The notes under the pieces are model-generated. The model was not told where the DNA came from, made no database searches, and saw only the letters and a list, made by a program, of their open reading frames with translations. Positions 455 to 63,614 of a stretch of 64,000 bases of DNA are shown here, one piece after another. The translations under genes and the position numbers were made by a program. Numbering within the stretch: position 1 is the first letter of the stretch; each line of letters starts with the position of its first letter. The stretch lies in the IMG/VR virus record IMGVR_UViG_2630968701_000001. One strand, 5' to 3'. The stretch is from an uncultured virus (IMG/VR IMGVR_UViG_2630968701_000001). Taxonomy: Duplodnaviria; Heunggongvirae; Uroviricota; Caudoviricetes.

Positions 455-491
455 ATATGAGAGATTTCGGAGAAAAAAACTTTTCACATAT
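455..491 (-). promoter_or_regulatory. Bipartite motif copy inside IS element A, upstream of tnpB
   Basis: ATATGTGAAAAG...TCTCTCATATTT, 37 bp. Confidence 0.8.
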
Positions 492-548
492 AAGAAAACC
501 GGATTCATCCCACTGCCTACAAAGGCAGGGCAATTCTCCGGAATTTTG

Positions 549-624
549 TTAAAGCCCTGATCTTGTATACTTTAATTCCATATATTTCCTTGAAGTTATC
601 TTTCACAATTTCATATTTTTTCAA
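549..624 (-). pseudogene. 5' fragment of a paralogue of 650..1111, interrupted by IS element A
   Basis: MKKYEIVKDNFKEIYGIKVYKIRAL aligns with MEKIELVKSMHKMVDGVKVYRIRAL. Confidence 0.75.
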
Positions 625-649
625 TGATACCACCTGCCATATGAAATTT

Positions 650-1111
650 TTAGTCTGAAATAAATGCATTCCCTGAAAGCACAGTTTTCCCATAAATTTT
701 TGCATTTCCAAAGACATTAATGTGATCACCGATACATACTTCATCAGTTAATTCTGCATTTCCAAAAACTTTTGAATGTCCTGCTACAATAGCTTTTCCA
801 CTTATTTTGGCATAATCTCTTACTGCTGCTTCTTCACAAATAGTTGAATTTCCACAAACTATTGCATTTCCAGTTACCAAAGCATTATCTTTGACCTTAG
901 CCATCCCATATACAGCAGCATTTTCAGCGATCCAGCAATTTCCTTCTTCCGACAAATTGAGCAGATATTGAGCATATCCTCCCAAATCACCTTTTTTAAC
1001 TTCTTTGCACTGAAGATGACGAGGATAAAAGGATTTTAACGCTCGAATTCGATATACTTTAACCCCATCTACCATTTTGTGCATACTTTTTACTAATTCA
1101 ATTTTTTCCAT
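650..1111 (-). CDS. Phage-type left-handed beta-helix (hexapeptide repeat) protein
   Basis: YRIRALK..GDLGGY..NLS.EGNCW followed by A.V.GNA.V repeats. Confidence 0.8.
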   Translation of the reverse strand: MEKIELVKSMHKMVDGVKVYRIRALKSFYPRHLQCKEVKKGDLGGYAQYLLNLSEEGNCWIAENAAVYGMAKVKDNALVTGNAIVCGNSTICEEAAVRDYAKISGKAIVAGHSKVFGNAELTDEVCIGDHINVFGNAKIYGKTVLSGNAFISD

Positions 1112-1341
1112 CTTTTTCTCCTTATCTTAAAAACATTTGTAATCCGTTTAAAAAAATTTACAATATCCTCTTTGATCATTTCTCTAGTATTGACAAAATC
1201 ACTTTCTTCATCTTTTTTCCCACGAAGTTGATTGTCTCTGTGTATATATAGGTTTACCAAGAATTCCATAAGGCTCAAATACCAAGCAAAAATTGTAAAT
1301 ACTAGAGCCAAAAGACACACAATCTGTATTGCAATATTCAT
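1093..1341 (-). CDS. Small membrane protein
   Basis: Hydrophobic N-terminus; RBS GAGGTG; follows motif copy 1407-1442. Confidence 0.65.
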   Translation of the reverse strand: MNIAIQIVCLLALVFTIFAWYLSLMEFLVNLYIHRDNQLRGKKDEESDFVNTREMIKEDIVNFFKRITNVFKIRRKRWKKLN

Positions 1342-1479
1342 TAATCTAACACCTCACCTTCTTCCAACTTTGATTTTCATCCTTTTATTTTTTTTCTTCA
1401 TTACAAATATGAGATATTTTTCAATCTTCATTTTTCATATATAAAATTTTTGCAAAAGAAAAGACGGGGTATCCCCGCC

Positions 1480-2244
1480 TTATAAAGTAATAATCTCCTG
1501 CCCACATAACAGTTTAATTTTTGTCTTCAAAATTCTCTGCTGATTTTTTGGAAGATCGATCGTCAGGTCATCAAGATCAGAGATATCTTTCTCTCCATCT
1601 AGTACATCTCCAACAAAATCCAAAATATCACTACAATTTTTGTAAATATAGTAATCTACTGCATATGGGCTGTACGTGCATCCATTATCCCGAATGAACT
1701 GATACATTCTTCTTCCTGCATGGCTGACTGTGATCTTAGTTGATTCTATGATCTCTGCATTCTCCTTGTTACGGTCTTTATCTTTTACCCGAAAGGAAAA
1801 ATACTGATCAAATCGAAGGACACAATCTTTGATCTGATTTTTTGTTAGATCTTTTTCAAAATGAGAGCACAGATCTTCCAATGTCACATGATGTTTTTCT
1901 TCTACAATGAAGCTGATGATCGCTGCTAATTCTCTGCGATTTTTTAACGCTTTTTCAAAATCATGTCGTTCTGATAAGACTGATTCATTTTTAAAATATA
2001 AGTCACATAATGCGACAAAATAGGTAAGATCCATGAAACGTCCTACAGAATAGTTTTTTAGCGTTTCAGGAACAATCATGCTTTTGACATCGTCATAACA
2101 GGCTTCAACAAGATTAAATACATTCGATCTGATTCCGTATTTGATGTATCGAAAAACATGTTCTTCAATTTCTCCTATCAGTTCATTTACTTCCTGATCA
2201 TTATCTTTTTCTGATATTACTTTTAAAAAATCTTCTTTTTTCAT
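1480..2244 (-). CDS. Hypothetical protein
   Basis: 254 aa ORF with GGAGG RBS. Confidence 0.7.
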   Translation of the reverse strand: MKKEDFLKVISEKDNDQEVNELIGEIEEHVFRYIKYGIRSNVFNLVEACYDDVKSMIVPETLKNYSVGRFMDLTYFVALCDLYFKNESVLSERHDFEKALKNRRELAAIISFIVEEKHHVTLEDLCSHFEKDLTKNQIKDCVLRFDQYFSFRVKDKDRNKENAEIIESTKITVSHAGRRMYQFIRDNGCTYSPYAVDYYIYKNCSDILDFVGDVLDGEKDISDLDDLTIDLPKNQQRILKTKIKLLCGQEIITL

Positions 2245-2491
2245 TTTCTTTCCGCCTCCAATTTTTCTGCGATTCTGCGCAGATCAATCTGTAATACTCC
2301 TTCCACATCTCCAGGCAGATCTGTTTTCATATTCTCAATGTCAGAAATTTTTTTTCTTTCCATCGATCAGATCTTCTACAAAATCCTGCACGATTTTTGC
2401 TGTTTTATAAGATGCCTGATCCAAAGCAAACTGACTCTAACTGATCTGCACACCAATAGGTGGCAGCTTTCACTCTCAAAGTTTTGTAATC
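2241..2491 (-). pseudogene. C-terminal remnant of a paralogue of 1480..2244
   Basis: DY|SQFALDQASYKTAKIVQDFVEDLIDGKKKISD aligns with YSPYAVDYYIYKNCSDILDFVGDVLDGEKDISD; frameshift at an A8 run; split by a 49 bp mini-IS. Confidence 0.7.
2437..2485 (-). mobile_element. 49 bp mini-element: fused left and right ends of IS element C
   Basis: TTAC|AAAACTTTGAGAGTGAAAGCTGCCACCTATTGGTGTGCAGATCAGTTAG; 5' part matches 13083 onward, 3' part matches 14946-14975. Confidence 0.9.
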
Positions 2492-3061: not shown

Positions 3062-3171
3062 CTTGAATTTCTCCTTTTATTTTAAATATGACGGAATTTA
3101 TGAAAAAAGTTTTTCACATATAAAAAAACTCTGCGGCAAAACCTATATTGTCTTACAACAGAGTTTCTTGC

Positions 3172-3513: not shown

Positions 3514-3544
3514 AGCTTGTTAATCTGCTCATTTTCTTTCTCCT

Positions 3545-7718: not shown

Positions 7719-7887
7719 CTAAATCTTTTAAAATGGAATCTTCATGTCTTGTACAATTTGTTTCACGAATAATAATTTTCATTTTTTCTTTTCTCCTTTA
7801 TTTCTTATTTTCTAATACAAATATGAAAGAATTTTTCCGAAAAGATTTTCACATATAAAAAAAGAGGCCATTACAACCTCTCTTTTT

Positions 7888-8455: not shown

Positions 8456-8628
8456 GATTTTTTCCTTAATTTTCTTTTCTCCTAATCGTCGTTAATATTT
8501 ACATCTCAAATATGAGGGATTTGATAACTCATAACTGACGGAAAAAAGAGAGCCAAAAAATGACTCTCTTGTAAAACTTTTCTCTTATTTTGTCAAAGCA
8601 TAGTCGCAGTCGAAATTTTCATTTCTTT

Positions 8629-9156: not shown

Positions 9157-9274
9157 GATTTTTCTCCTTTATTTCTCTCAATCGTCATTAATAATTACAC
9201 TATAAGTATGAGATTTTTAAGAACGAATAATTTTCGTATCCATGAATTCTGGCATATTTCGCTTGCAATAGTTT

Positions 9275-9497: not shown

Positions 9498-10306
9498 TCA
9501 ATTAGGTGTTGGAACAAAAATTAAATTATAAGCGATCTTATAGCTTTTTAGAGAAAACATAAGATCTGGAAGATCCAATGTATTTGTGTCCAATGCCTGA
9601 TTTAAAAGATCAAGAACCAATTTCTTTCTTGTATTATTCAGTTTCAAAAATTCAAATCGATAAAAATTAACCTGGAATCCAAAGAAGTTCTCATCGTGAT
9701 TATGCGGATCATAGAGTTCATAGCAGCACTGATCATTTTCTTTAAAGATTAAGTAAATTCGGTTTGGAAGAAATTGATGATTGTCTTCATTTTCATCTGG
9801 CCCTTTTGCTGAATTATTCAAAATCTTTTCTGGACTATCAGCGCAAATAGAATCGATCGCATCATGAAAGAAATTTGGATTATCTTGTTTTGCAATGACA
9901 TATTTTGATGTGATCCATAAGCAGATCGTAAATATTATTCCGATAATACATGTAACCAACAGAACATTTCTATAATTGTTTTTTTGATCAAATATACAAA
10001 ATCCTAATAGCCACACTCCAACATAAACTATTAATTTTTTTACAACACAAGAAATCCTTTCATACATGAAATTTTTTTTATAATTTTCTGATGGTCCAAG
10101 CCGAATTCCATTAACTCCAAGTGTTAGATACTCTGCCATATTCCATAATACTGGAAGCATAGTAACTGCTACAAAAGTGTCAAATGATGACAATATTACT
10201 TTTCCATAAAAGAATCTTTCCAATCCCTGCCAGATCAGTAAAAGTAAAAAGCAATTGTCAAAAAAAAGACAGACCTAGTAGCAATGATTTTTGTTTTTTT
10301 ACTCAT
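9498..10306 (-). CDS. Multi-pass membrane protein; probable frameshift at A7 run near the start
   Basis: Hydrophobic segments; ATG at 10306 with RBS joins the long frame if one base is removed from 10294-10300. Confidence 0.6.
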
Positions 10307-10535
10307 CTTTCTCCTCCTTAATCTCCATATAAGTTCCAAGTATCTGATCTGGATTGATCTTGAAATATTTGATGATTTTTTCTAATACCTGAAAGGATGG
10401 GACGCTGCGTCCAATTTCGTAATATGAAACCATGATTCTTGTAACTCCAAGAATATTTCCAAGATCTTCCTGTGTTAGATTATGTTCTTTTCTTAATTCT
10501 TTTAGATTTTTTATAAAGTTTTTTCTCAAGCGCAC
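10299..10535 (-). CDS. Xre/Cro-C1 family HTH regulator (GTG start)
   Basis: NLKELRKEHNLTQEDLGNILGVTRIMVSYYEIGRSVPS; AAGGAG before GTG 10535; directly behind motif 10564-10599. Confidence 0.9.
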   Translation of the reverse strand: MRLRKNFIKNLKELRKEHNLTQEDLGNILGVTRIMVSYYEIGRSVPSFQVLEKIIKYFKINPDQILGTYMEIKEEKDE

Positions 10536-10644
10536 TTCTCCTTTCGATATTCTCTTACTACAAATATGAGAGAAATTTTCGCTTTTATTTTTCATATATA
10601 AAAAAATTCCTGGAATTTCTTCCAAAGATTTCCGTATTTCATAC

Positions 10645-12593
10645 TTAGTCGTCTTCATAATGTTTCTCATCCAGTTCTTTCATTAGATCAATAATTAAGG
10701 AAAGCGTATCTGCATCATAAAAGGAATTTAACCAAACTACCCCTGAACTGATAGCAAACACAATCTTTTCATCCCATTCTATATCTTCTTCATCGATTTC
10801 TACAGATAATGGATATGTATCATCATGATCAACATGAATTGGAGCATATGTACGTGAATCATCATGCTTATAGATTGGATATAAACCATACATCTTAAAA
10901 AGATATTTTTCTAGTTTTGTTGGATTCTCATTAGAACATTTGATTTCACTCATATTTTTTCCTCCCTCTGAAATTCTCTAATCCTTTTTCTGCACGATAA
11001 ATCATATTTGTTCGGTTAATGCAAAAATTTTCAATATCACATTCATCTTCAAAATAGTATTGCTCATACAGTTCTTGCATTTTTTCTGTTAGTTCGTCAG
11101 CATCCTGCATATTCTGCAGGTCGGTTTTCAGATCTTGCAAATCCTTCTTTTCTGTTTCTAATGCAGCTTTGATATCCTTTACAGAATTTAGACATTCAGT
11201 ATCCCAGTATGTAACACTGATTCCTTTATATTCGGCAACCATCGTATGGACATTGCGAACGATCAAACATTTCATGTACCGATCGAAACCAACTATCTCC
11301 CAGAATTTTAATTCATTTTTGTCAAATATGATATTCTCAGGAAGCAGTTCTATTTTTGAATGATCTGCAGCTCCCGGCAATGAATTTTCAAAACTCTTCT
11401 TGAAATTTTCTAAGTTGTCAGCAAATACATACAAATTCAAAGTTTCATGATATCCTTCAAATTGTTTCTTTTCTGGATTATATCGACATGGGATGATAAA
11501 TCCATCTTTTTCTACATAATACATGTTAACTCCCCTTTCGATCTTCTTTCAAATCATTGATCTCTTCCAACTCTTTCTTCATTCTTGCAATGATTTTGAG
11601 TGTATCTTTGCATTTGTCCCTAATCTTAGTAAAACCAAAATAGAAAAGATACTCATATGATTTCTTATAATTAATGTAATCTTTGCAATTCTTATGCTCT
11701 TCTGCGATGATCAGATTTGTAAATCGTTCAATATCTTCATTTGATATGAATCGATGCATGTATTTTTGTTTTCTACGAATAGCTTTCCGTAATGGATGTC
11801 TTACTTGTGCTAGTGTTTGTTTATTCTTTTCATCTTTGTAAAAATCCATGTTCTGAATATGATCTAACTGTCGAACCACATGATAATAGGTCCATATTGT
11901 TCTTTCAGGAATTTTATCGTAGATATACTCAGCGAATGATAATCTATCACTGATGATCTTTTTTCTCTCTTCCATAAGCTGCATGATCTCATTCTTGTCA
12001 TTTGTATAGTCATCATCCAATTCTTCCTGAGTTACGTTTTGGTATCTGGCCCGCTTTATTTTATATGGTCGAATGATATATTCTTCCAAATCAGGATCAA
12101 AACCGATCAGCTGATAAAATTTCCAAGTTCCTTTATGAAAGATGATACGTTTTGGCATGACATCTACTTTTTTTGTTGTATTATATCCCAAATAATCATA
12201 CGGAGTAAGACCCTCTTCAATCTCATACAACCAATCTTTGCATACAATATCAGATCTTCTGGGGTCATCGTTTGCTTTTCCATATAAATAATGAAATTCT
12301 GAATTATATTGCAATGTAGCATGGCATTTTTTTACTTTATATCTTGACTGCAAATAAAACATGTGTTAGCTCCTTTCTTTCTCATCTTCTACAAGAATTG
12401 CTTTCCAATTGCTGCTGTTGCAGGAAGATGAGATGATCTTGTATCCAGAATTAATGCAAATGTTTACAAGATCTTCAAACATTTCTGAATCTTCTTCTTC
12501 AATTGTGACACATCGAATTCCATCAATATGGTTTCGTTTATTATAAATTCGTTTATTTTTTTCTAGAATTTTTTCTAAAGTTTCTTTTGTCAT
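10645..12593 (-). other. Four co-oriented hypothetical genes (10645-10953, 10946-11524, 11526-12362, 12366-12593)
   Basis: Abutting ORFs behind motif 12616-12651; the middle two share an IIF.K...KF....GFD segment. Confidence 0.7.
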
Positions 12594-13170
12594 AGTTATC
12601 TCTCCTTTATTTTAAATATGAGAGAAATTTATAAAAAGAAAAATCATATATAAAAAAAGGACCAATCAAGGTCCCTTGTTGAAAAATTATGCATAGATCG
12701 CATACTGAATAAATCCAATATGAGCTTCCCAATTGAAATCTTTTGGCAGGTAATCTTCTAATTTTTCTTTGAATTCATCAATGATCTCATCCATTGAATG
12801 ATAACTTCCTTTGAAGATTTCCTGAAGCAATGTTGATTTGTCTGTGAAAAAAATACCGTAATAATCCCCATATAGTTCAAAACAATCATCTTCTCCACAA
12901 CGCTCATCACATTCAAATGGGTAAAAAATTCCGCCAGACATCTCATCTTTATATAACGAAATTTGGAAATGTTTTTCGTCATTTTCTTCAATTGAGGATG
13001 GATCTGCCTTTTTGCACTTTGATCGAATTAATGCTTGTTCATCAAGTTCTTCAACTGCAGTGTAGGCGTCAGGAACTTTTACAAAACTTTGAGAGTGAAA
13101 GCTGCCATCTATTGGGGTGCAGATGAAACTCGGCATTAAAATGGATAGGATTCAGAGAATCAAAAATCTT

Positions 13171-13207
13171 ATATGTGAAAAATATTTTTTTAAAAAATCT
13201 ATCATAT
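13171..13207 (+). promoter_or_regulatory. Bipartite motif copy inside IS element C, upstream of tnpB
   Basis: ATATGTGAAAAA...TCTATCATATTT, oriented with tnpB against the surrounding genes. Confidence 0.8.
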
Positions 13208-13240
13208 TTATAGTAAAAGAATCAAAAAAGGAGTGATCTT

Positions 13241-14737
13241 ATGGCAACCTACAGTCTGGAGTTAAAATTGAATACAAAGAAAGCTTCCGATTGCTGGTAT
13301 CTGGAGAACTACTTCCGAGAAGTGGCCAAGATCAGCAACGCCGTGCGGCGTTTTGCCATGCGCAGGATCGAACGTCTGAAGCGGGATAAGAACTATCGGG
13401 ATCTGTTGGCACAATACATAAAACTCATCAAGCAGGACAAAGAGAAAGAAAAGGAGACTGTTGGGAAGGAACTGTCTGTTGTCGTCTGGTCTTACGGATT
13501 GACAAAATTTTATTTGCAAAAGTCCGCACTCGATCTGCGAAAGAACCTGCGGTATGTTCACTCCACAGTTTATCAAAAGATCTGTGATCAGGTATGGAAA
13601 GGTGTTGAGAAGGTCCTGTATGCAGATGGAAAGCGGATGCATTTCAAGAAATGGGATGACTTCTTAAGTTTCGAGGGAAAATCCAATACTACAGGAATCA
13701 TCTATCAGGACGGGAAAGTGTATATCAACTGTACGCCGAAACGTCCAAATGGAGGGATCATTCTGTCCGTAAAGTTGCCGAACAATAAAAACAACGATCA
13801 CTGGAACTATGAGACGAGATGCTTGTGCGATCCAACAAAATACTGCCGGATCGTAAGGAAGAAGTTTTCTTCCGGATGGTGTTATTATGTCCAGCTGATC
13901 CAGGAAGGGATCCCGCCACAGAAACATGTAAGAGGGACCGGAAGGATCGGGATCGATATCGGGACCTCTACGGTTGCTACAGTATCTGAAACAGCATGTC
14001 ATTTAGATGTTCTGGGAGATTCCATGGAGACAAAGGAGAAAGAGATCCGAAGACTACAGCGAAAGATGGATCGCAGCCGCAGAGCGACAAATCCTCAGAA
14101 TTATAAGGAAGATGGAAGGGTCAAAAAGGAAAAAAAACGATGGGCCTACAGTCATCATTATCAAAAAATGCGGGATCAGTTAAAGACGATGCGAAGAAAA
14201 CGTACAGCTTCCCTAAAACAGTGGCAGGAGATCTATGCAAACCGTCTGCTCGAAGAAGGAGATGAAGTTTATGTGGAGGATATGAGCTTTAAGGCATTAA
14301 AGAAACGAAAAAAGAAGACGGAGAAAAAGGAGAACGGTCGGTACAAGAGTAAGAAACGGTTCGGGAAGTCGATCGGGAATCATGCTCCGGCACAGTTCCT
14401 GACGATCGTGAAGCAGAAACTGGATCAGACCGGCGGGAAATACCATGAAGTTAATACACGGAAGTTTAAAGCCAGTCAGTATGATCATGTGACCGATACT
14501 TATACCAGAAAGAAACTAACAAAACGGCATCATTGGGCAGACAGAGACTGGGTGCAGCGAGATCTGTACAGTGCGTTTCTTCTGATGAACTCTAACAAAA
14601 GTTTAGAACATGCCGACCGTGACTTGTGCCTTCTTCATTATCCGTCCTTTAAAATACTCCATGACCAGTGTATCGAAGAGATCATCGCATCCGACAAACA
14701 TATCCCTGCAAGCTTTGGCTTCCATCGTGCAGCATAG
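13241..14737 (+). CDS. tnpB: TnpB (498 aa), RuvC triad intact, no canonical zinc finger
   Basis: GIDIG, YVEDM, QRDLYSA; LQRKMDRSRRATNP.NY. Confidence 0.9.
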   Translation: MATYSLELKLNTKKASDCWYLENYFREVAKISNAVRRFAMRRIERLKRDKNYRDLLAQYIKLIKQDKEKEKETVGKELSVVVWSYGLTKFYLQKSALDLRKNLRYVHSTVYQKICDQVWKGVEKVLYADGKRMHFKKWDDFLSFEGKSNTTGIIYQDGKVYINCTPKRPNGGIILSVKLPNNKNNDHWNYETRCLCDPTKYCRIVRKKFSSGWCYYVQLIQEGIPPQKHVRGTGRIGIDIGTSTVATVSETACHLDVLGDSMETKEKEIRRLQRKMDRSRRATNPQNYKEDGRVKKEKKRWAYSHHYQKMRDQLKTMRRKRTASLKQWQEIYANRLLEEGDEVYVEDMSFKALKKRKKKTEKKENGRYKSKKRFGKSIGNHAPAQFLTIVKQKLDQTGGKYHEVNTRKFKASQYDHVTDTYTRKKLTKRHHWADRDWVQRDLYSAFLLMNSNKSLEHADRDLCLLHYPSFKILHDQCIEEIIASDKHIPASFGFHRAA

Positions 14738-15193
14738 AGAAAAATAAATAACAACAACGGATCCAGCTGAGTCCGTCAGACTGCCGAAAGGTGAAACGTG
14801 CCATGCATGGATGTCTGAAATGTTTCTGCAACAGAGAGACTATAACTGACAGCTTTCTGACATCAAAAAAGTACCAGATCCTCTGAGATAGAAGAACCGA
14901 TACCGATGTTTTGAGACCTTAAGTGATGTCCTCTTGTACTGGAACCTGCCACCTATTGGTGTGCAGATCAGTTAGCATATCCCTTCCACATATTTCTTTT
15001 AGATATTTTTTGCAAAACTCAATTGTCTCCTTTTCATCCAAAATTAATGCTGTTCCACTTTCTGCATACCAATTACTGCTCATAATTCATTTCTCCTTTT
15101 CTCTGAATCGTCATTTTAAATGTTTCAGTTTAAATATGAGAGATAAGAAAAAGCATAAAGAAAAAGAGACCTATTGCAGTCTCTTTTTTTAAA

Positions 15194-20060: not shown

Positions 20061-20172
20061 AAAATTTTCTCCTTTTCTTTCTCTAAATCGTCATTTATAT
20101 TTACGTATTAAATATGTCAGATGAGAAGGAAGATAAAATCCATATATAAAAAAAGAGATCCGAAGACCTCTT

Positions 20173-22566: not shown

Positions 22567-22686
22567 TTTCTTTTTCTCCTTTTTTCCTTTTCTACTACAA
22601 ATATGAGATATTTTCAGAGAAAAAATTTTTACATATAAAAAACATAAAAAAACAGACTCTGTTTACTTACAAAGCCTGCTCTCTTT

Positions 22687-23649: not shown

Positions 23650-24209
23650 AAAATTCTTTTAATAGCTGCACATACCATACATTATCGAGCGTTTCTTTTG
23701 TAATATCTTCAAAATCATTCGGATCATTGATCACACTCCAATAACTCTCACATCCATAAATGATCTTCTTTAATTCAAATACATAGATCGCGGGATTATT
23801 CATAGTACAGATATGTAATTGTTTGTTTTTCCTTTCATAAGAAACGTAATTTTGTGTCGGAAGATTTCCTAAATACATGCCAAGATAGGTCTTTTCTTTG
23901 TATTCTTTTGCACATGGCATAATACGAATTGGTGTTCCTGGTTCGTATCGATTCCATGATTTGAACGGTTCATATTTAATTTTGTTAACTTCAATTGGAT
24001 ACTGAATATGTTTGTTCTTAAATTGTATACAGGATTCACATTCCTCTCCACTAACAGCGACAATATCATCTTCTACTTTTTTGCTACAATACACTTCGTG
24101 AAGCCTCACACGACTAAAGTTGCGTGCTTCCCATCAGCGCTTAGACGCGCATAGCTCCTTTAGAGAGCGGGAACTACATTTCTACAGATACAGTCTGAAC
24201 TCAGATGAC

Positions 24210-25547
24210 TTATGCCACAGAGGACACAAGCTCCGCATTCAGACGAATTAAAGTAGACCATGTGCAGGTGCTTCTCTTAGCGACCTGAGGAACTTCTGCC
24301 TCAAGTGCCAACCTTTCCTTCTCAGGCAAGGATTTTAAGATCTCCCGGATAAAATACCGGGCTCCGATATTATAGGATGCAGAAAGATCGCAGTTATAGA
24401 CTTTTCCGTTCTGGAACTGGCAGACACTGTAAGATGGGAATCCTGCCTGTTTTCCGCGCAGGACTCGTCCACTTCCATCATAAGCCAGTCTGGAAGTGTT
24501 CCAGGCACAGATCCGGGCGATATGCATTCCCAGACGATGCGCTTTATCCGTTACGATCCTCTGGACTTCCTGACTCTTCCACAGGTGTAGCCGTTGTTTT
24601 CTGGAACCGCGTTTCTTTCCTTTCTTTTCTAAATATTCAAAGACGATGACGTCTGCGTTGTAAAGGACTGCGACATCCATGATAAACTCTGCAGTTTTGA
24701 CAGAGATGTCATGATTGATCCCGTTCACTTTTGCCCATAACCTCGGCATCTTGCGGTTTCCATGCTGCTGCGCTTTCTTGATCCGGTTGATATTGTGCGT
24801 TAGACAGTCTTGTTCCTTTGGAAGTTTTAAAAAATGTCTTCCAATGATAGTGCCGTCACTACACATCACACTGATCGTTGCAGCAGAGTTGATCCCAAGA
24901 TCGACCGCACAGATGATCCGGTCCGCAACATCCACGTCACATAGTTCTAAAAATTCTTCAAATGGGAAGTCCAGATGCCACTCTTTTCCACGTTTTTGTA
25001 ACACAGGAGCACACTTTCTCCGACCGGAACATCTACGATCGATATAATCCATGTCAGATTTTCGGAGTTTGATGTCCAGCCAGTCCCAGGTATTTCGGAT
25101 ATATACCTTGATCCTTGCTTCATAGGCTCCAGTCCTCTGATACATGTTCTTTCGGTACATGCATGGGCAGATATATCCGGCTCTTGGAAACGAAGGTCTG
25201 CGTCCACGAGTGTTTGGATCCTCTTCTTCCCAGTTTTTCAGATTACTTTTATAAGAAGAAACCTTGCCGATCGCTTCATTGATCGCAGCACGTCGAAGGA
25301 AACTCGGAAACTTATAAAACTTTTTGTCAAAGTCATAAACCGTTTCCGGATGCTTCTTCGTAAAATGGCATAGCCGTTCCACATACTGCTGACGAGATAG
25401 TGACAGATCGATCTTTTTGATCTCTGCCCATTCTTTCAGACAGACATTGATCAGAAAGTCCACGGCATGACGATAGACTTCCACGGTTCCGCGAAAGATA
25501 TAATTGTATGTCTTGATCTTTACTTTATATGTGGAAAGTATCTTCAT
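24210..25547 (-). CDS. tnpB: TnpB (445 aa), RuvC triad intact
   Basis: AVDLG, VFEYL, NCDLSASYNI. Confidence 0.9.
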   Translation of the reverse strand: MKILSTYKVKIKTYNYIFRGTVEVYRHAVDFLINVCLKEWAEIKKIDLSLSRQQYVERLCHFTKKHPETVYDFDKKFYKFPSFLRRAAINEAIGKVSSYKSNLKNWEEEDPNTRGRRPSFPRAGYICPCMYRKNMYQRTGAYEARIKVYIRNTWDWLDIKLRKSDMDYIDRRCSGRRKCAPVLQKRGKEWHLDFPFEEFLELCDVDVADRIICAVDLGINSAATISVMCSDGTIIGRHFLKLPKEQDCLTHNINRIKKAQQHGNRKMPRLWAKVNGINHDISVKTAEFIMDVAVLYNADVIVFEYLEKKGKKRGSRKQRLHLWKSQEVQRIVTDKAHRLGMHIARICAWNTSRLAYDGSGRVLRGKQAGFPSYSVCQFQNGKVYNCDLSASYNIGARYFIREILKSLPEKERLALEAEVPQVAKRSTCTWSTLIRLNAELVSSVA

Positions 25548-25586
25548 GTCGTAGTCTCCTTCCTGGTTATGATTTTCTTATTATAA

Positions 25587-25622
25587 ATATGAGATTTTTC
25601 ATAATTTATAATTTTCATATAT
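25587..25622 (-). promoter_or_regulatory. Bipartite motif copy inside IS element D, upstream of tnpB
   Basis: ATATATGAAAA...TCTCATATTT, 36 bp. Confidence 0.8.
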
Positions 25623-25790
25623 AAAAATTTTCTTTCTGTTTAAATAGAAGCACCACCTAACTCACGACTAAAGTCACGAGTGTGTGGGGGTGATTTGATC
25701 AAAATTTTCACCCATATATGGAAAAGAATATGAGCAATTTTTCTGACGTTCTGTTGGCTTTTTTCGTTTCTCTGACATTTTATTTTCTCC

Positions 25791-27588: not shown

Positions 27589-27848
27589 TTAATAGGATTG
27601 AGAAAGTCATGATTGCTGTTCCAAGAGCCTCAATCATGATTTCTCTTGGATATCCGTCATAATTTTCGTTTTTGTAAAAATGATAAAATCCAGAAAGTAT
27701 TCCAAAAAGTGTAATAATAAACCCAATTTTAAATGCTATAAAACAAATTTTCATTTTCTTTCCCTTTTCTCCTTCTTCTTTTACTATAAATATGATAGAA
27801 AATTCATTTTTTATTTTTCACATATAAAAAAAATGGCATAAACATCTG

Positions 27849-30149: not shown

Positions 30150-30235
30150 AATTTTCCTCCTTTCTCGCATAATATCTTCTAATTTAAATATGAGAGATTT
30201 GGTAAAAAAAATTATTCACATATAAAAAAATGGCA

Positions 30236-32126: not shown

Positions 32127-32127
32127 C

Positions 32128-32652: not shown

Positions 32653-32711
32653 ATCGTTTTCTCCCTTCGTCTCTTTTTCTTTAAATATGAGAGATGAAGG
32701 GATGCCATAAC

Positions 32712-33242: not shown

Positions 33243-33372
33243 AACTTTTCTCCTTTTCTAAAACAACTATTATCATCTTACATTATGAATATGAGAGATT
33301 TATCCCCTCCAAAGAAAAAAACATTGTACTTTTTCAAATACAAAAAGATCCCGGATCACTTCCGGGACCTTC

Positions 33373-33834: not shown

Positions 33835-33943
33835 AAACTACCTCCAACTTCTTTTTTTAATAAAAACTTTCTCTAATACAAATATGAGATATTTGATCTT
33901 CATTTTTTGCATCATGAGGTTCCTTTTTCTTTTAAAGAAAACG

Positions 33944-34763: not shown

Positions 34764-35047
34764 GTTTTATTCATTGAGATGGGGTTGATTGATCTATCAT
34801 GGGATCACTGTCTTTTTTAATGAAAACAGAGGGCAGCAGGTGAAATCCTATGATAGTTATTTATTTGAGTGAGGTTGGTTTTTATTGAAAGAATGAGATG
34901 GGTTTATTGTGAGAAAGCAGAATGATAGAACTGTCTTTTTAAATGAAAACAACTGCCTGCTTTAATGGAAATACTTTTTTAAAAAAATGATAAAATTATC
35001 TTTCATCTTATCCATCATATTTGTGATAGATTCTTCTTCTTTAAAAG

Positions 35048-42582: not shown

Positions 42583-42707
42583 TCCTTTCTTCTATTTTTC
42601 TAAGGATTAAAAAAAATCCTCATATTAAATATGAAAGAAATGAGATAAAATATTGAATCCATGACTACTATATTTTTTTAAATGAATCAAAAAGATGAAT
42701 CATTCTA

Positions 42708-42735
42708 TTGACATATTTTGTAATCATGATATAAT
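42708..42735 (+). promoter_or_regulatory. Consensus sigma-A promoter
   Basis: TTGACA-16-TATAAT with extended TG. Confidence 0.8.
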
Positions 42736-42804: not shown

Positions 42805-42879
42805 ATATGTGAAAATTATTTTCCAGAAAATCTCTCATATTTATAATAACAAGATAAATATAGGAGAAAGGAGAAACTT

Positions 42880-44905: not shown

Positions 44906-44985
44906 ATTTTTTTTCTCCTTTCGTCTGTTTGTTATATAGTAAATATGACGATTCGAAACACTGCATAAATGGAAAAGAGAAAGGC

Positions 44986-48092: not shown

Positions 48093-48213
48093 AGTAAAAA
48101 CCTCCTCATATCAAATATGAATTTTTTAAGAAAAAAAATGGATGGTATGAATTTGGAATTTTTTTATGTAAAAAAAAAGACAGATAAGATATTCCTTACC
48201 CGTCTTTGAAGCA

Positions 48214-50465: not shown

Positions 50466-50656
50466 GTTTCTCCTTTCTCAAAAAATTTCCATATGTTTTT
50501 ATGGATCTTAAGAAATCTTTTCTAAGTATTTTCAAACTTATCAGTAAGACTTCTTTCAATCCTCACTTTAAATATGAGATTTTTGAGAAAAAATATTGGC
50601 GACTTCTCTGGGCAAAAAAAATAAGCAGTGTAATTGCTGCCTATTCCTATTTTGTA

Positions 50657-51804: not shown

Positions 51805-51923
51805 TTCAAACCCTCCTATGCCTTGTTTGAATATCTTACCATTCATTATAAATATGAGATTTTTGACAAAAAAAATAGGCAGACATTTCTGTCCACCCAT
51901 TCTTATGTAATAGGAATTGCACT

Positions 51924-56260: not shown

Positions 56261-56461
56261 ACTTCCACGCTCCTTTCTTCATATTTCTGAGAATGCCTTC
56301 TCATTTCAAATATGATGTTTTTGAAAGAAAAAAATGGAGCTGAAAGCTTCCAAAAAATATAAACAATTTTTTTGAAAACGCCCATTTTATGCGGACTCCA
56401 ACGCTATATACACTGTATTTTACGTACAAAAAAATAGGCCCATATGGACCTATTTCTTGCA

Positions 56462-57859: not shown

Positions 57860-58020
57860 AATTTTCCTCCTTTTTATTTCTACTTTAAGTATGCGAGATT
57901 TAAAAAAAAATAACGTTATACACTTTGTATAAAAATAATGTTGCAAATCACAACTTTTTCCCTTCAAAAATCTCATATTTAATGTAGAGTTATTTTTTAA
58001 ATTAATAAGGGAGAAAAATT

Positions 58021-58686
58021 ATGTATAGCAGAGAATTAATTTTTGAATACGAAAATGTATTAACTGAGAACAAACCATCTGTAAACCCATTTCTTTTTAA
58101 TCGCGGTGACTATGAAAATGAACGAAAAGCGTTATATATCATGAGATATGCGATTCAAACATATCTGAGATGGAATCCATATGAAGTAAGAGATCATATG
58201 ACGCATCGTATTTTAAAAATGTTGAAATTAGAAGCATTACTAAAATACATTACGTTTCCAAGCGTAATTCAGATTGAAGAAGACCGTGACCTATTTTATC
58301 TGGCCGTAAAGTTGTATCCAAAACAAATAAAATATAATGAAAAAGATCTGATCCTCAGAGTCTATAAACGCGTTTTAAAAGGCGATATGAAACGATTTCC
58401 AAAACAATTTCTTGCAGGAGCAGATGGATTATATCGTGCCAAATTATGTTTTCATTATATGATCACACAATATCTTACGTTTACAAGTATTGAAGATATG
58501 TATCGATTTTTCTCATCACGCGGAGGTGCTGTTGCTTTGAGAAAATATCGATTATCTCAGGTTTGCAAAGATCTGTTTGAATATAATGTTGATTTTCTGC
58601 ATGAATCATTATCTGAAGATCAAAAAGATGAACTACTGTATCATTATTACAGATTTTCGAATATTTACAAAAAGGGAATCCGGTGA
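58021..58686 (+). CDS. DUF4046-like repeat protein
   Basis: Two repeats of Y..VL.G..K.FP..F....A.....Y.I..YL. Confidence 0.6.
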   Translation: MYSRELIFEYENVLTENKPSVNPFLFNRGDYENERKALYIMRYAIQTYLRWNPYEVRDHMTHRILKMLKLEALLKYITFPSVIQIEEDRDLFYLAVKLYPKQIKYNEKDLILRVYKRVLKGDMKRFPKQFLAGADGLYRAKLCFHYMITQYLTFTSIEDMYRFFSSRGGAVALRKYRLSQVCKDLFEYNVDFLHESLSEDQKDELLYHYYRFSNIYKKGIR

Positions 58687-58700
58687 GGTCCCCTTTTTTC

Positions 58701-58958: not shown

Positions 58959-58974
58959 AATTCTGTTTTCCTTT

Positions 58975-61107: not shown

Positions 61108-61213
61108 ATTATCTCTCCTATCTTTCTCTGTTCTAATACAAATATGAGAGAAAAAACAAAAATAAATTTTCACATATAAAAAAACTGACTCGAAAGAGAG
61201 CCAGCTTTTTACG

Positions 61214-61513
61214 TTATAATTCCATTGTTGGAAAAGAGTTGAAGATATCTTCTTCTTTGTATGGAGTTGTTGTAAATCCATTGATAATGTTCACATAATC
61301 AGCAAAACGATTATTTTTTAAATTCTGCTGTTTTTGTCCAGGGCTTAGATATTCTGTTTGATAAACAGTTTCTTTTTCGTTGTTTTTCACGCAAAATGTT
61401 AAAAAACATGGAATATCCAGATTATTGCATATTCTTTTGATCTCTTCTACCTTTTCTTTTAAATTTTTATTGTATTCTTTTGTTTTATTAAATTCTGTAA
61501 TCACATGATTCAC
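61214..61513 (-). CDS. Hypothetical protein in par operon
   Basis: Co-oriented after parR-like gene. Confidence 0.65.
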   Translation of the reverse strand: MNHVITEFNKTKEYNKNLKEKVEEIKRICNNLDIPCFLTFCVKNNEKETVYQTEYLSPGQKQQNLKNNRFADYVNIINGFTTTPYKEEDIFNSFPTMEL

Positions 61514-61521
61514 CCTTTCTG

Positions 61522-62310
61522 TTAAAAGCCTTGCATCATTTTTCCTGCAATGGCAAAGATACTGTCATTTTCATCTTCATCGTATGAATCATCGATATCA
61601 ACTGTCTCATTACTTATTTCATTATCCTGAGGTTCTGTAAATTCTGGTTCTTTTTGAATTTCGTCAATCTCCTCTGGTTCATTTACTTTGGTTTCCTGAT
61701 CTTTTGTGTTTGAAATTGGAATTGTTATTTTTCCCTTTATATTAGAATTCGATGTTTTATCTTTATATTCTTCTTTTATCTCTTCTGAATGATCATATTC
61801 GCTATTTTTAGCTTCATCATCAAGTCTGTCATTAACTTCTCTTTTTTCTTGTTCTTCCTTATTGACTTCTTGGATTTTATTCTCTTTTTTATCATCAACA
61901 ATAATATCCTGGTCCTTTTTATCGTCATTAGCGGCCGCTTCGGCACTTTTATGATTTAAAATTAACATCTCATCTGCCCGATGAACATTCATTGTATAAT
62001 AATAATAAATCCCACATAAAGAATTTCGAAACATATTCTTTAAAATGCTGTTTTTATAGCCAGCTTTTATATTCCGAATCCACATGATCACATCTTGATC
62101 CTCTTTAGGATGAAAATTTAGTTGAAACTGAATTGTTTCATAACTAAATGTATCATCCTGAGGTTCTGGAATCTGTATTTTTTGTGGAGTTCCACGAATG
62201 TAATTACGAACAGCACTTTTAAAGGATTCTTTAAATTTAAATTCCGAATTGTGATATAACGACAATAGATCGATGTCATATCGTTTGTAAAGACGTATCG
62301 TTACTCGCAT
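61522..62310 (-). CDS. ParR-like adaptor candidate
   Basis: Directly after ParM; two ribbon-helix-helix-like segments, long acidic tail. Confidence 0.55.
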   Translation of the reverse strand: MRVTIRLYKRYDIDLLSLYHNSEFKFKESFKSAVRNYIRGTPQKIQIPEPQDDTFSYETIQFQLNFHPKEDQDVIMWIRNIKAGYKNSILKNMFRNSLCGIYYYYTMNVHRADEMLILNHKSAEAAANDDKKDQDIIVDDKKENKIQEVNKEEQEKREVNDRLDDEAKNSEYDHSEEIKEEYKDKTSNSNIKGKITIPISNTKDQETKVNEPEEIDEIQKEPEFTEPQDNEISNETVDIDDSYDEDENDSIFAIAGKMMQGF

Positions 62311-62326
62311 ATCAGATCACCATCCT

Positions 62327-63490
62327 TTAATATCCCATTTGTCTCAAAGTCCCGATCAAATTCATATAGTACCCTCTTACATTATTAAAAATGCTAGGAA
62401 GATTGTCATTCTGTGTTCCTGGAATGATCTTCAATGTCTCTAATCCTGAAAAATATTGGATGATATCTGGTTTCCATACAGCAGATAATCCACCTGTTGG
62501 AATCAGATAATCGCAGTTAAATAAAGCATTGTAAACGGAACACAACTTATCTAAAGCTTCATTGCATACTTCATTGCAAGATTCTTCCAAAAGATTTGCA
62601 AATGGGACATCTTTTGAAATTGGTCTTCCATTTTTTCGACTCTTGATACGTATATTCCCAGTTTTTAGATTTGACTGCATGGAAGCGATCGGGATATCTT
62701 CATTATATTGCTCCTGTATTTTTTTTCTTGTTTTGTTTAAGATTTCTTTCATGCTCAGTTCATTGAAGGTACTTTGATCTTCAATTGTCTGATTTTTGAT
62801 ATAAAATGTATCACATGTCCCAAATCCTGGATCAAAAATGATGAGATTTGAGCTCCACAGTTTCTTTGCTTCTGGAACCTGACGACCATTTCGATCGAAA
62901 GATACGCTGAATAAAGTGCCCATTGGCTGTGGCATGATCGCAATATCCTGTTTTGTGATCTGAAAATCAAATTCTTTCCATGGATCTTCCCCGACCTTCA
63001 TGCGAAAATGGTGCTTTCCAGACATAGATTCAACCAGATCTTCTTTGTCTGTCATATATTTTGGTGGTAATCCAGTTTGAATTTTGATCGAACGCCCTGA
63101 TGGGCCACCATACTGATTATCAAACATTCCCATAGCTAATCCACATCTTGTGATCACTTTAAACATTGGAGAAAAATATCTTTTTCTTCCATATAATTCA
63201 GACTCGCTATCATGTTCATCTGCCATTTCCTGTGCCATTTCTCCTACGATCCAGCTTTCTCCTGTTTCTAAATCTTCATATAAGATTCTTGTCTTGCTGA
63301 CTGATCCGATACTAAGCAAAGGCCCTTCTAATTTTTTTGCAAAACTTGGAATACAAGCAGCTGCATTTTCGCAAAATACTTTGACACTGGAATATCCAAT
63401 ATCAATTGCGATACCCCAAGCTTTTTTTACGCCAACGTTTTTCCGAGGGATGTATAACGTTTTCGTTTTAAAATCAATCGTGTTAATCAT
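62327..63490 (-). CDS. parM: ParM/StbA actin-like partition ATPase
   Basis: IDIGYSSVK, TGLP, MPQP.G, DPGFGT.D, TGG. Confidence 0.9.
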   Translation of the reverse strand: MINTIDFKTKTLYIPRKNVGVKKAWGIAIDIGYSSVKVFCENAAACIPSFAKKLEGPLLSIGSVSKTRILYEDLETGESWIVGEMAQEMADEHDSESELYGRKRYFSPMFKVITRCGLAMGMFDNQYGGPSGRSIKIQTGLPPKYMTDKEDLVESMSGKHHFRMKVGEDPWKEFDFQITKQDIAIMPQPMGTLFSVSFDRNGRQVPEAKKLWSSNLIIFDPGFGTCDTFYIKNQTIEDQSTFNELSMKEILNKTRKKIQEQYNEDIPIASMQSNLKTGNIRIKSRKNGRPISKDVPFANLLEESCNEVCNEALDKLCSVYNALFNCDYLIPTGGLSAVWKPDIIQYFSGLETLKIIPGTQNDNLPSIFNNVRGYYMNLIGTLRQMGY

Positions 63491-63614
63491 ATGCTTTCTC
63501 CTTTATATAAAATTTGATTTGATTTTTCTTTTCAATATAAATATGAAAGATTTCAAAAGAAAAAATTTTCACATATAAAAAAAAGCTCCAAAAGTAAGGA
63601 ACTTTTTCTTATGA

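Follow-up and report, generated by a model that had tools for sequence, protein, structure and literature searches.

Fifteen copies of a two-armed repeat are spread over the 64,000-nucleotide stretch of DNA analysed here (the window), and the question was what this repeat does and which protein reads it. All fifteen copies listed in an earlier note were recovered at their coordinates, with the strand following gene orientation (Table 1), and 13 of them had an ATAT..CATAT span of 36 bp and the other two (455-491 and 13171-13207) one of 37 bp, as that note had described. A loose two-arm pattern matched 15 times in the window and 0 times per order-3 Markov simulation (n = 100), while a strict pattern matched 8 times and never among 100 shuffles. 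Judged from its sequence, the repeat is almost certainly a promoter used solely by a giant plasmid of gut bacteria. The view that the two-arm motif heads nearly every transcription unit did not hold, as the right arm covers far more gene heads. Right-arm sites numbered 30 in the window; half of them (15) have the left box, and the other 15 stand without it at gene heads that include transfer operons. Among 34 minus-strand gene heads, counted where the upstream gap was at least 60 bp or a site was present, 24 had a site (11 two-arm, 13 right arm only) and 10 had none. In the transfer region (33-58 kb), every site found on the coding strand was of the right-arm type. The T run described ahead of the motif is in part the box itself (T in 99% at -47 and in 99% at -45, with T in 64% and C in 36% at -46). 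The terminator hairpin said to precede it was common but not present in every copy; of 70 T-type copies 87%, and of 39 C-type copies 72%, gave a fold with a minimum free energy below -7 kcal/mol.

Read as a promoter, the right arm corresponds to a -10 element (TCT-CATATT), behind which position -1 is T and +1 a purine. The -10 common to all three promoter types is AAATCTCT-CATATT, with CATATT at -12 to -7. Conservation extended beyond CATATTT: of 109 copies, 91% had T at -1 and 99% a purine at +1, two columns that had played no part in choosing the copies. The pattern T-R-n-n-n-Y-R followed CATAYT in 114 of 136 two-arm copies as compared to 37 of 621 CATAYT sites in coding regions. One class A copy, that is, left box plus -10 core, lies 13 nt upstream of a tRNA-Gln gene, where there is no ribosome-binding site. 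The purine found six bases after CATATT is very probably the start of transcription. Class C promoters have TTAT at -32 to -29, GTAA at +1 and a GACGA box in the leader. Class A promoters lacked both the class C -32 element and the weak -35 word of class B (0/121) and thus look activator-dependent.

The left arm, TYTTATATRTGA at -47 to -36, is contained in a quasi-palindromic box (-47 to -33) centred near -40.5. This box is a separate element, placed at a fixed distance from the -10 and outside the normal -35 position. In 125 non-redundant exact left boxes, CATAYT was found at a span of 36 in 103, 37 in 12 and 35 in 3, and the remaining 7 had no paired CATAYT; left boxes that did not match the fetching pattern were still paired with CATAYT in 62 of 72 cases. 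The imperfect inverted repeat that had been proposed is weak and fails a mirror test over 109 non-redundant 36-bp copies. Mirrored positions paired in 93-100% at -43 to -40, and the mirrored pairs -45/-6, -44/-7 and -38/-13, which are among the best conserved, did so in only 0-2%. The repeat accordingly reads best as a promoter and not as an inverted repeat, and its left box may well be the site of an activator.

Table 1. Promoters, promoter cores and associated features in the window.
Feature	Position	Strand	Putative +1	Remarks
Class A promoter, 37-bp form	455..491	-	447	Behind an IS200/IS605-type end hairpin, ahead of a tnpB running off the window
Class A promoter	1407..1442	-	about 1399	
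Class A promoter	3086..3121	-	about 3078	Ribosome-binding site begins at +2 to +4
Class A promoter	7821..7856	-	about 7813	Heads short ORF; a promoterless tnpB element is inserted right behind
Class A promoter	10564..10599	-	about 10556	Heads XRE-type HTH gene
XRE HTH gene under class A promoter	10299..10670	-		Candidate regulator; true start probably downstream of its promoter
Class A promoter	12616..12651	-	about 12608	
Class A promoter, 37-bp form	13171..13207	+	about 13215	Within tnpB element 13083-14971
Degenerate class A box on class C type promoter	20112..20147	-	about 20104	GACGA leader box
Class A promoter	22601..22636	-	about 22593	Heads radical SAM gene
Class A promoter	25587..25622	-	about 25579	Within tnpB element 24098-25694
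Class A promoter	27790..27825	-	about 27782	
Class A promoter	30188..30223	-	about 30180	Heads recD2; group II intron directly upstream
Class A promoter	42805..42840	+	about 42848	Heads 42-codon ORF
Class A promoter	61142..61177	-	about 61134	Heads second recD2
Class A promoter	63541..63576	-	about 63533	Heads actin-like partition operon
-10 core without left box, class C like	8509..8514	-		
-10 core (CATACT) without left box, class C	9205..9210	-		
-10 core without left box, class C	15133..15138	-		
-10 core without left box, class C like	32684..32689	-		Heads nuclease gene
-10 core without left box	33288..33293	-		
-10 core without left box	33881..33886	-		
-10 core without left box	35016..35021	+		Upstream of Mob_Pre relaxase gene
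-10 core without left box	42628..42633	-		Upstream of NlpC/P60 gene
-10 core without left box, class C	44942..44947	-		
-10 core without left box	48114..48119	-		Upstream of virB4; ribosome-binding site begins at +1
-10 core without left box	50571..50576	-		Transfer region
-10 core without left box	51851..51856	-		Transfer region
-10 core without left box	56309..56314	-		Upstream of virD4
-10 core (CATACT) without left box	57888..57893	-		
-10 core without left box	57974..57979	+		Upstream of DUF4046 gene
DUF4046 gene, common to pCY360 and pRUMAL01	58021..58686	+		Candidate regulator
Host-type SigA consensus promoter	42708..42735	+		Precedes short probable RNA; the window's only perfect SigA consensus promoter, outside the private set
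TnpB-only insertion sequence with own class A promoter	13083..14971	+		Absent in relative L050
TnpB-only insertion sequence with own class A promoter	24098..25694	-		Absent in relative L040
Group II intron with RT gene	30231..32127	-		Absent in L040; inserted between terminator T run and class A box

The window is part of a widespread conjugative megaplasmid of the human gut, probably about 420 kb in size, with a GC content of 34% here and a host that appears to belong to the Clostridia. The motif was found to be private to this element, as had been supposed: the full motif occurred in 0 of 401 Clostridia genomes, and the strict core in 0 of 61 as compared to 5 occurrences in the window. Host-type SigA promoters were scarce, with 7 non-redundant strict matches in the pooled loci, and the IS1182-type transposase gene of the window has an extended SigA -10 in place of the private one. 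The plasmid seems to switch on its genes through a private code, much as phages do.

No sigma factor gene was found among 75 ORFs of the window, in agreement with the earlier note, and the sigma-70 gene that it had predicted was found on motif-rich contigs of the same element family. The product is a divergent sigma-70 factor of 280 aa with domains 2, 3 and 4 and no region 1.1. The gene (L068:6104-6946) scored 70.6 bits on TIGR02937 (cut-off 42.9) with matches to Pfam regions 2 and 4, and the predicted model of the protein resembles sigma factors in promoter complexes. The 90% cluster to which it belongs counts 430 members, and one of these was seen on a 422,070-bp contig. The sigma operon is headed by class A, core-only and class C promoters, which points to positive feedback, and no SigA promoter was seen in the stretch read upstream of it. 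The protein has His at the position of the Gln in WWIRQA of SigA, the residue with which SigA reads -12. The sigma locus was whole in 2 of 3 isolate-size runs containing window DNA. It was seen neither in a fourth run with the same species label nor in X1, possibly the source run of the window, in which only short promoter and IS-end pieces matched and a filter drops records; likewise, no chain of overlaps of at least 2.5 kb linked window and sigma locus. As 287 of the 336 non-window protein clusters were scanned, in loci chosen for carrying the motif, a second sigma factor or an activator may have escaped notice. We consider the plasmid sigma factor the likely reader of these promoters.

Two further megaplasmids, pCY360 of Butyrivibrio proteoclasticus and pRUMAL01 of Ruminococcus albus, share with the window plasmid an actin-like protein (about 40%), DnaE, RecD2, DUF4046 and a sigma gene. 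A fold match was sought for the DUF4046 protein of the window and none was found. On a lineage profile built without the closest relatives, the pCY360 sigma factor scored 168 bits as compared to 74 for host SigF and belongs to the same lineage, whereas that of pRUMAL01 scored 82 bits and was no nearer to the lineage than general sigma factors. Each plasmid has its own box near -45, and the box sequences differ between the plasmids. Across 224 upstream regions, pCY360 had its box TGTGCAGAAAAAT 22 times in sense and 3 times in antisense orientation, with a constant distance of 33 bp to the -10 that follows; CATAHT overall showed no strand bias there (88 vs 87), and only CCATAAT did (22 vs 3). 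The TATATA box of pRUMAL01 had the same offset in 13 of 25 cases, and 28 promoters of this plasmid can be aligned in the same register, WWTCT-GC-TATAAT; 75% of them carry T at -1, and position +1 is a purine in 89%. The box-linked -10 in both plasmids is SigA-like (TG-n-TATAAT), so that host SigA could read it there.

The best explanation as a whole, to which we attach moderate confidence, is that the plasmid sigma factor reads the -10 and that an activator acts at the left box. The repeat would be one of three promoter types of a conjugative megaplasmid hosted by Clostridia, whose own sigma-70 factor would load on host RNA polymerase, read the shared -10 and, with its operon under its own promoters, sustain positive feedback. 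The left box, neither a mirror of the right arm nor an ordinary -35, would occupy a class II activator position. There a plasmid-encoded dimeric activator would most likely bind and turn on the class A set of partition, recD2, cargo, small RNA, tRNA and resident tnpB genes. Class C and the remaining core-only transfer-operon promoters would be under separate control.

Alternatively, host SigA might read the promoters aided by a plasmid activator in the style of SetCD/AcaCD, leaving a narrower role to the plasmid sigma factor; either CATATT would be a poor -10, or the downstream T-R-n-n-n-T would be the -10 with a start near +7. SetCD sites lie directly upstream of the -35, according to the available part of PMC4344509. 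The SigA-like -10s of pCY360 and pRUMAL01, TA(T/A)AAT at -6 to -1 in about 20 of 125 class A copies and the failure to see the sigma locus in X1 are in line with this reading. It is unlikely, however, since the -12 to -7 slot of class A copies was CATATT in 100 of 125 and TATAAT in none, which argues for selection for C at -12. The shifted register would moreover put G at '-11' in 31% and truncate the ribosome-binding sites that begin at +1 to +4 (17 of 144, in a test covering -6 onward only), and the core stands boxless at 15 window sites. The almost constant spacing of 36-37 bp, a region 4.2 without the SRLE residues of host SigF and SigE and the fact that no activator was identified would suit a plasmid sigma factor that reads both arms alone, with the left box as a distant -35 or a site for domain 4 or the C-terminal tail. 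We regard this as quite unlikely because 23 bp separate the end of the box from the -10 hexamer where 17 bp are usual, a difference of about half a helical turn, and half of the window sites lack the box. Class C furthermore has its own TTAT at the normal domain-4 position, and the quasi-palindromic box is like dimer sites.

Were the left box a repressor operator of the Reg576 style, class A genes would burst after transfer and then be silenced. Reg576 sites lie directly upstream of the -35 of strong promoters in the part of PMC8708921 that was available. Many class A genes are small cargo genes, and one class A promoter heads the XRE HTH gene. This is decidedly unlikely, as class A also heads the partition operon, the tRNA cluster and tnpB, which would presumably be needed beyond entry, the promoters look activator-dependent, and operators, to our knowledge, rarely hold spacing to within one base. 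Co-option of a host sporulation sigma factor (SigG, SigE or SigK), with plasmid expression in sporulation, would account for the similarity of CATAYT to the SigG -10 (CATAHTA) and for a weak A-T-A at -32 to -30 (61/74/61%), where the SigG -35 ends. It is very improbable given that -6 is T in 99% and not A, that there is no G at -35/-34, that the strict core was in none of 61 Clostridia genomes and that partition and DNA polymerase genes share the core. Nor does the SigE/SigK register CATAnnnT apply, because the required T position is A or G here. Finally, a two-armed recombination or cassette site, or a single-stranded-DNA hairpin promoter, could be suggested by the mutual mirroring of the four innermost core positions and by the group II introns that lie, at two sites, directly upstream of a class A box. 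Such readings are largely refuted by the three conserved pairs that hardly ever pair, a mean DNA folding energy of the span of only -2.2 kcal/mol, the occurrence of the motif on both strands and a right arm that appears to work alone. The proposed role as a cassette boundary is not supported either, as differences between the window and its relatives ended mostly at insertion-sequence and intron ends in a breakpoint comparison.

The activators SetCD and AcaCD reportedly work with host sigma. Their element-wide box in SXT/R391 ICEs and IncC plasmids is, in the accessible part of PMC4344509, likewise fixed directly upstream of the -35 and read as class II activation, but they are FlhDC-like proteins of Gammaproteobacteria. 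No FlhDC-like protein was found on the present element, and here the -10 itself is private. Closer to the plasmid sigma factor is SigN (ZpdN) of Bacillus subtilis pBS32 (PMC6751061; PMC10601692), which is also a plasmid-encoded sigma-70 with a plasmid-restricted consensus that heads its own gene, its -10 GATATA and CATATT both being TATAAT variants. SigN is described as weakly ECF-like and as induced by DNA damage via a LexA-repressed SigA promoter, and the 19 promoters in its Table 2 have a normal -35, TTTACG, 14 bp before GATATA. In contrast, the present sigma factor has domains 2, 3 and 4, there are three promoter forms and an upstream box at -47 to -33, and genes for partition, replication, conjugation and tRNAs are all headed by the core; a search of the private promoters for a LexA box found none. 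The Reg576/EGeRS system of the pLS20 family (PMC6294495; PMC8708921), in the portions available, is similar in placing a repeated upstream element before several operons of a Firmicute plasmid. The EGeRS2 elements there, present at four loci, are strong promoters that carry a repressor site made of direct repeats, and the EGeRS1 elements are structured regions of 400-600 bp without a constitutive promoter. The unit described here is about 50 bp long, occurs more than 100 times and is not confined to establishment genes; the analogy to establishment regulons is not supported, since the -10 core, which lies on both strands, is found ahead of a tRNA cluster and of genes for partition, replication and conjugation as well.

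The Hodor elements (PMC12934698) resemble the window plasmid in a common theme of ParM, VirB4/VirD4, SecY, trigger factor and sortase, and differ in a GC content of 44-47% as compared to 34%. An RpoS-annotated sigma factor is mentioned in the Inocle paper (PMC12340149), and the word 'promoter' is absent from the main texts of both papers. The resident TnpB insertion sequences of the window carry the promoter internally, much as satellites borrow the SetCD/AcaCD box in the accessible part of PMC4344509.

All 15 two-arm copies of the repeat described in the earlier note were recovered at their positions in the window, the span being 36 bp in 13 copies and 37 bp in two. A loose two-arm pattern matched 15 times in the window and 0 times in each of 100 order-3 simulations, while a strict pattern matched 8 times as compared to 0 in 100 shuffles. 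A matrix built from copies outside the window returned 29 sites in the window, whereas 10 simulations gave 0-2. Adding two weaker sites to these and removing one overlapping weak match resulted in a final list of 30 sites, of which 15 carry the left box and 15 lack it. The right arm also stands alone in the window, and these solitary copies were overlooked at first reading; among the window sites, the transfer operons carry the right arm alone and never the left box. As to the proposal that the motif heads nearly every transcription unit, a site of either form, with or without the left box, was present at 24 of the 34 listed minus-strand gene heads and missing from the other 10, which include an intron ORF and an IS1182-type transposase.

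Promoter anatomy was evaluated on 136 non-redundant two-arm copies, with a span of 36 in 109 and 37 in 12. Pooled counts exclude loci shorter than 1 kb, two reference-plasmid loci, four loci from a pattern with the wrong spacer, and L008, L014, L035, L041, L045 and L053-L055, which hold a single match and have no window overlap. With CATATT set at -12 to -7, the logo reads TYT-TATATRTGA-AAA at -47 to -33 (the left box), a T-rich spacer and AAATCTCT at -20 to -13, followed by CATATT and a tail of T (99%), R (100%), three free bases, T (91%) and R (99%). Transcription tends to start at a purine preceded by a pyrimidine, and the last T and R of the tail agree with this rule. The tail was found behind CATAYT in 114 of 136 two-arm copies, 102 of 415 box-less intergenic sites and 37 of 621 coding sites. 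In a search from -6 on, the ribosome-binding site lay at or past +1 in 143 of 144 sites, 17 of them at +1 to +4. One copy lies 13 nt upstream of a tRNA-Gln gene, and the motif is therefore not a translation signal. From its sequence, the repeat is read with strong confidence as a promoter.

Exact left boxes were paired with the right arm at span 36-37 in 115 of 125 cases. As the loci had been fetched by the two-arm pattern, pairing was rechecked on left boxes not matching that pattern, and 62 of 72 were still paired. The left box is a single quasi-palindrome. The two arms, previously described as an imperfect inverted repeat, form no true dyad, since mirror pairing breaks down at the conserved columns. 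A single-stranded (Frpo/ssi) promoter or a two-armed recombination site was rejected on the account of a mean folding energy of -2.2 kcal/mol, the missing dyad and the use of both strands. Besides left box plus -10 core (class A) and the core alone, a third form, class C, was recognized at 23 non-redundant sites by its TTAT at -32 to -29 (87-100%), by GTAA at +1 and by a GACGA box in positions +9 to +15; it heads a small-ORF/sigma pair, dnaE and several window genes. A -35 word of class B, KYCAKW, was dropped, as it was found at 17 bp in just 8 of 37 sites, which is too weak to call.

The motif had been expected to be private to the element, and this was borne out in sampled Clostridia genomes that stand in for the host's own chromosome: the full motif was absent from all 401 genomes scanned for it and the strict core from all 61, as compared to 5 strict cores in the window. 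Matches to SigA-type promoters in the first 20 kb were at shuffle level (68 versus 77.8 in shuffles), and strict SigA-type promoters numbered 7 in total in the pooled loci. The IS1182-type transposase gene of the window has an extended SigA -10. We consider the repeat to represent a genuine family of promoters that is private to the element, a widespread gut megaplasmid.

The window has a GC content of 34% and encodes VirB4, VirD4, TrbL, PrgI, an NlpC/P60 protein, a Mob_Pre relaxase, an actin-like partition protein, two RecD2, RecU, three whole TnpB and a group II intron reverse transcriptase. For the actin-like protein, the nearest annotated relatives, at roughly 40%, are encoded by the megaplasmids pRUMAL01 (Ruminococcus albus) and pCY360 (Butyrivibrio proteoclasticus). 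On the basis of these relatives the host is inferred to be a member of the Clostridia; look-alikes of the insertion sequences and intron gave no informative match as to host genus. The two-arm pattern matched 8 viral-collection loci and at least 155 metagenome stretches, mostly from human gut where named, and five isolate-size runs of one organism contain 65-100% of sampled window words. Some motif loci are 90-99% identical to the window, and many others are motif-rich and lie outside it. A Pfam scan of 287 of the 336 non-window protein clusters gave DnaE, topoisomerase, SSB, SecA/SecY/SecB, trigger factor, penicillin-binding protein, LexA, sortases, Ter genes, two CRISPR-Cas sets and one sigma-70. 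The Sec, trigger factor, penicillin-binding protein, LexA, ClpX-like ATPase and DnaE genes (motif-bearing loci L011, L013, L047, L063, L068, L078 and L044) recall the gene sets of Hodors and Inocles. Shorter, divergent VirD4-like paralogues were also observed, as was an ORF with an ATLF domain that shows no sign of being a whole toxin (see table).

No sigma gene is present among the 75 window ORFs, as the earlier note had stated; its suggestion that the replicon might encode one was followed by the finding of one sigma-70 gene on motif-rich contigs of the element family, at locus L068. The product scored 70.6 bits against TIGR02937 (cut-off 42.9), contains Pfam regions 2 and 4 and belongs to the sigma-70 family. 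The fold matches of its predicted structure (pLDDT 88) were sigma factors in promoter complexes. It fell below every subfamily cut-off shown (FliA_WhiG 63 versus 189.6, SigBFG 44.8 versus 234.35, RpoD_Cterm 39.1 versus 354, SigG 29.6 versus 457), and the nearest group was FliA for the single sequence and SigA for a 75-member profile (113 bits). A His, found in 87% of the sigma family, replaces the Gln of the SigA WWIRQA motif, and the SRLE found in region 4.2 of host SigF/SigE is missing. The lineage comprises 308 clusters at 50% identity with E values up to 1e-10, while the sigma cluster itself holds 430 sequences, one of them on a 422,070-bp contig. The top PLSDB match, at 25%, was to a SigF of chromosomal type. 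With the sigma profile at 1e-40, none of 400 Clostridia genomes matched, a weak test with five candidates scored per genome, and the locus was not found in the viral contigs searched.

The sigma gene is linked to the window indirectly. In one metagenome assembly the sigma contig and a window-like contig were similar in coverage (7.1 and 6.6). The whole sigma locus was present in isolate-size runs X2 and X5, that is in two of three such runs with window DNA; it was not seen in X21 or in X1, the possible source of the window, where a gap in a run does not equal absence. No chain of overlaps connects the sigma locus and the window. In the stretch read, the sigma operon is headed by private promoters alone (class A, core-only and class C).

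The element's own sigma probably reads these promoters, judging from promoter and protein sequence. In the most likely scheme it would load on host core RNA polymerase and read TCT-CATATT, while a putative dimeric plasmid activator would license class A from -47 to -33; binding of an activator at the left box is inferred from its position. Class C and core-only promoters would be set separately from class A. A DUF4046 protein, a candidate box-binder, gave a model of pLDDT 72 with no fold match at Z >=5 and atlas matches that were mostly DUF4046. The small ORF preceding sigma, a candidate anti-sigma or co-activator, had weak atlas matches and did not align with the small ORF of pCY360 in BLASTP. 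Further candidates for binding the left box are XRE HTH proteins and a 274-aa ORF that follows the sigma gene. Pfam scans of the 75 ORFs of the window and of 287 out of 336 clusters from elsewhere matched no FlhDC-like activator gene.

Reading of the promoters by host SigA is kept alive as an alternative, on the account of the related megaplasmids, both of which have a SigA-like -10 linked to their box. One sigma-70 above cut-off is encoded by pCY360 and one by pRUMAL01, and a profile made without the closest relatives gave 272 bits for the element sigma, 168 for pCY360, 82 for pRUMAL01 and 74 for host SigF. The pCY360 box TGTGCAGAAAAAT occurred 22 times in sense and 3 times in antisense among the 224 regions upstream of genes, and its distance to a TAnAnT -10 is constant at 33 bp; a CCATAAT class showed the same strand bias (22 versus 3), with CATAHT overall unbiased (88 versus 87). 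In pRUMAL01, WWTCT-GC-TATAAT is in register with AAATCT-CT-CATATT of the element, and a TATATA box lies at the matching offset in 13 of 25 cases. Each plasmid has a box of its own: the element left box was counted 14 times in the window, once in pCY360 (360 kb) and 0 times in pRUMAL01 (410 kb), and the pCY360 box 0, 49 and 4 times, respectively. Sporulation sigma factors, which the earlier note had invoked for the CATA-containing -10, fit less well. SigE and SigK recognize a -10 of CATAnnnT, and the eighth position of the motif is A (69%) or G (31%). SigG promoters combine CATAHTA with GHATR at 17-18 bp; CATAYT fits, but 99% of copies have T at position -6, and the G expected at -35/-34 is missing.

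The proposed reading by the element's own sigma resembles the SigN regulon of pBS32, as far as described in the accessible parts of PMC6751061 and PMC10601692, a likeness of regulon description and not of compared proteins: the promoter consensus is restricted to the element and its sigma operon carries that consensus. The element logo differs at both promoter elements and in spacing from the SigN consensus (TTTACG, 14 bp, GATATA; PMC6751061, Table 2). SigN is also expressed from a LexA-repressed SigA promoter. In the stretch read upstream of the element's sigma operon, neither a LexA-type box nor a SigA promoter was seen. The element itself encodes a LexA, and no LexA box was found at the private promoters. 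With the SetCD/AcaCD class II regulons (PMC4344509, text seen in part) the element shares a box fixed at or just upstream of -35. The analogy to establishment regulons was not supported, as the left box heads partition, recD2, tnpB and tRNA genes; Reg576/EGeRS2, in the portions of PMC8708921 and PMC6294495 consulted, combines a strong promoter with a direct-repeat operator solely before establishment genes, whereas the element box is a single quasi-palindrome. The main text of the Hodor paper (PMC12934698), in the part available, contains neither "sigma" nor "promoter", and its gene tables may list a sigma; the available part of the Inocle paper (PMC12340149) mentions an RpoS-annotated sigma and no promoter. 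PMC12056005, also seen in part, reports two megaplasmids of 103 and 126 kb. No description of the motif, sigma or plasmid was found in the main texts searched, few of them from subscription journals.

Plasmids are usually assumed to depend on host sigma factors, SigN being the one well-studied exception found, and a common human-gut megaplasmid here appears to subject almost all of its backbone to a promoter code of its own. We put slightly under an even chance on a broader reading, all components taken jointly, in which a whole family of Clostridia megaplasmids (the element together with pCY360 and, probably, pRUMAL01) governs its entire life cycle by a private transcription programme that is staged and resembles that of a phage. 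The private -10 would be read by a sigma lineage not described before, and the plasmid-specific box near -45 by a co-evolving factor; promoter classes would separate maintenance, replication and transfer, and resident TnpB insertion sequences would have adopted the private promoter and be expressed only in plasmid-bearing cells. Such a code, if true, would insulate expression from host regulation, could make host range depend on it, and would offer a single target for silencing transfer as well as an orthogonal sigma/promoter pair with which gut Clostridia could be engineered. Transcription starts are predicted with single-base precision, at the purine that follows CATAYT by six bases, examples being 63533, 61134, 48107 and 56302 (minus strand) and 13215 and 42848 (plus strand). 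The element is present in isolate-size runs and the pCY360 host is a cultured rumen type strain.

Coordinates of features in the window and in motif-bearing loci outside it (L numbers)
Feature	Location	Remark
tnpB element	window:13083-14971	class A promoter between end hairpin and tnpB; absent from one relative
tnpB element	window:24098-25694	class A promoter between end hairpin and tnpB; absent from one relative
Long TnpB element	window:5801-7716	no internal promoter
Long TnpB element, related	L032:15582-17162	class A promoter inside
Group II intron	window:30231-32127	directly 5' of class A box
Same group II intron	L083:7174-9095	directly 5' of class A box
IS200/IS605 remnant	window:16960-17090 (-)	extended SigA -10
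Stretch matching the remnant	L050:4527	preceded by LexA-type box
Sole perfect SigA-type promoter of window, with the stretch it heads	window:42708-42800 (+)	heads about 55 nt ending in terminator hairpin, a candidate small RNA; adjoins class A copy at 42805
Sigma-70 gene	L068:6104-6946	280 aa
VirD4-like paralogue	window:52871-54184 (-)	adjoins true coupling-protein gene
VirD4-like paralogue	L078:13723-14631	
VirD4-like paralogue	L052:4593-5417	
ATLF-domain ORF	L031:15484-16245 (-)	253 aa; Pfam E 4e-12; beside cell-wall amidase gene
75-nt tRNA, UCA anticodon	L025:10135-10209 (+)	also in L061
ROOL RNA (RF03087), full length	L025:10454-11072 (+)	255 bits; directly 3' of tRNA cluster
ROOL RNA (RF03087), full length	L079:19015-19633 (+)	directly 3' of tRNA cluster
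Repeated module	L068:4700-5130	
Repeated module	L069:10030-10530	
Repeated module	L044:8060-8510	
Repeated module	L085	
Repeated module	L072	
Cas9/Cas1/Cas2/Csn2 locus	L015:3850-10100	
Class A promoter	L015:10007 (-)	heads ORF-less RNA, a candidate tracrRNA

The tnpB element truncated by the window start likewise has a class A promoter between end hairpin and tnpB, as do members of two or more additional TnpB families at other loci; the pRUMAL01 tnpB is preceded by pRUMAL01's own promoter form. The two related long TnpB elements occupy one insertion site in different strains. The empty site of the group II intron in L040 reads terminator hairpin, T run and box. Breakpoints between relatives, judged by eye, mostly matched the ends of insertion sequences or introns, and the idea of the motif as a cassette boundary is therefore not supported.

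The tRNA with UCA anticodon, labelled SeC by ARAGORN and short for such a tRNA, belongs to a tRNA cluster headed by a class A promoter and is possibly a UGA-reading tRNA. TGA is still in use as a stop codon in the element, in 52 of 255 long ORFs. The repeated module consists of a small ORF with a core-only promoter and the leader word ATCCGGATGCT, paired with a class A promoter heading a short ORF-less hairpin RNA that also contains ATCCGGATGCT; it is possibly an antisense or decoy-RNA system. The ORF-less RNA at the Cas9 locus may be its tracrRNA.
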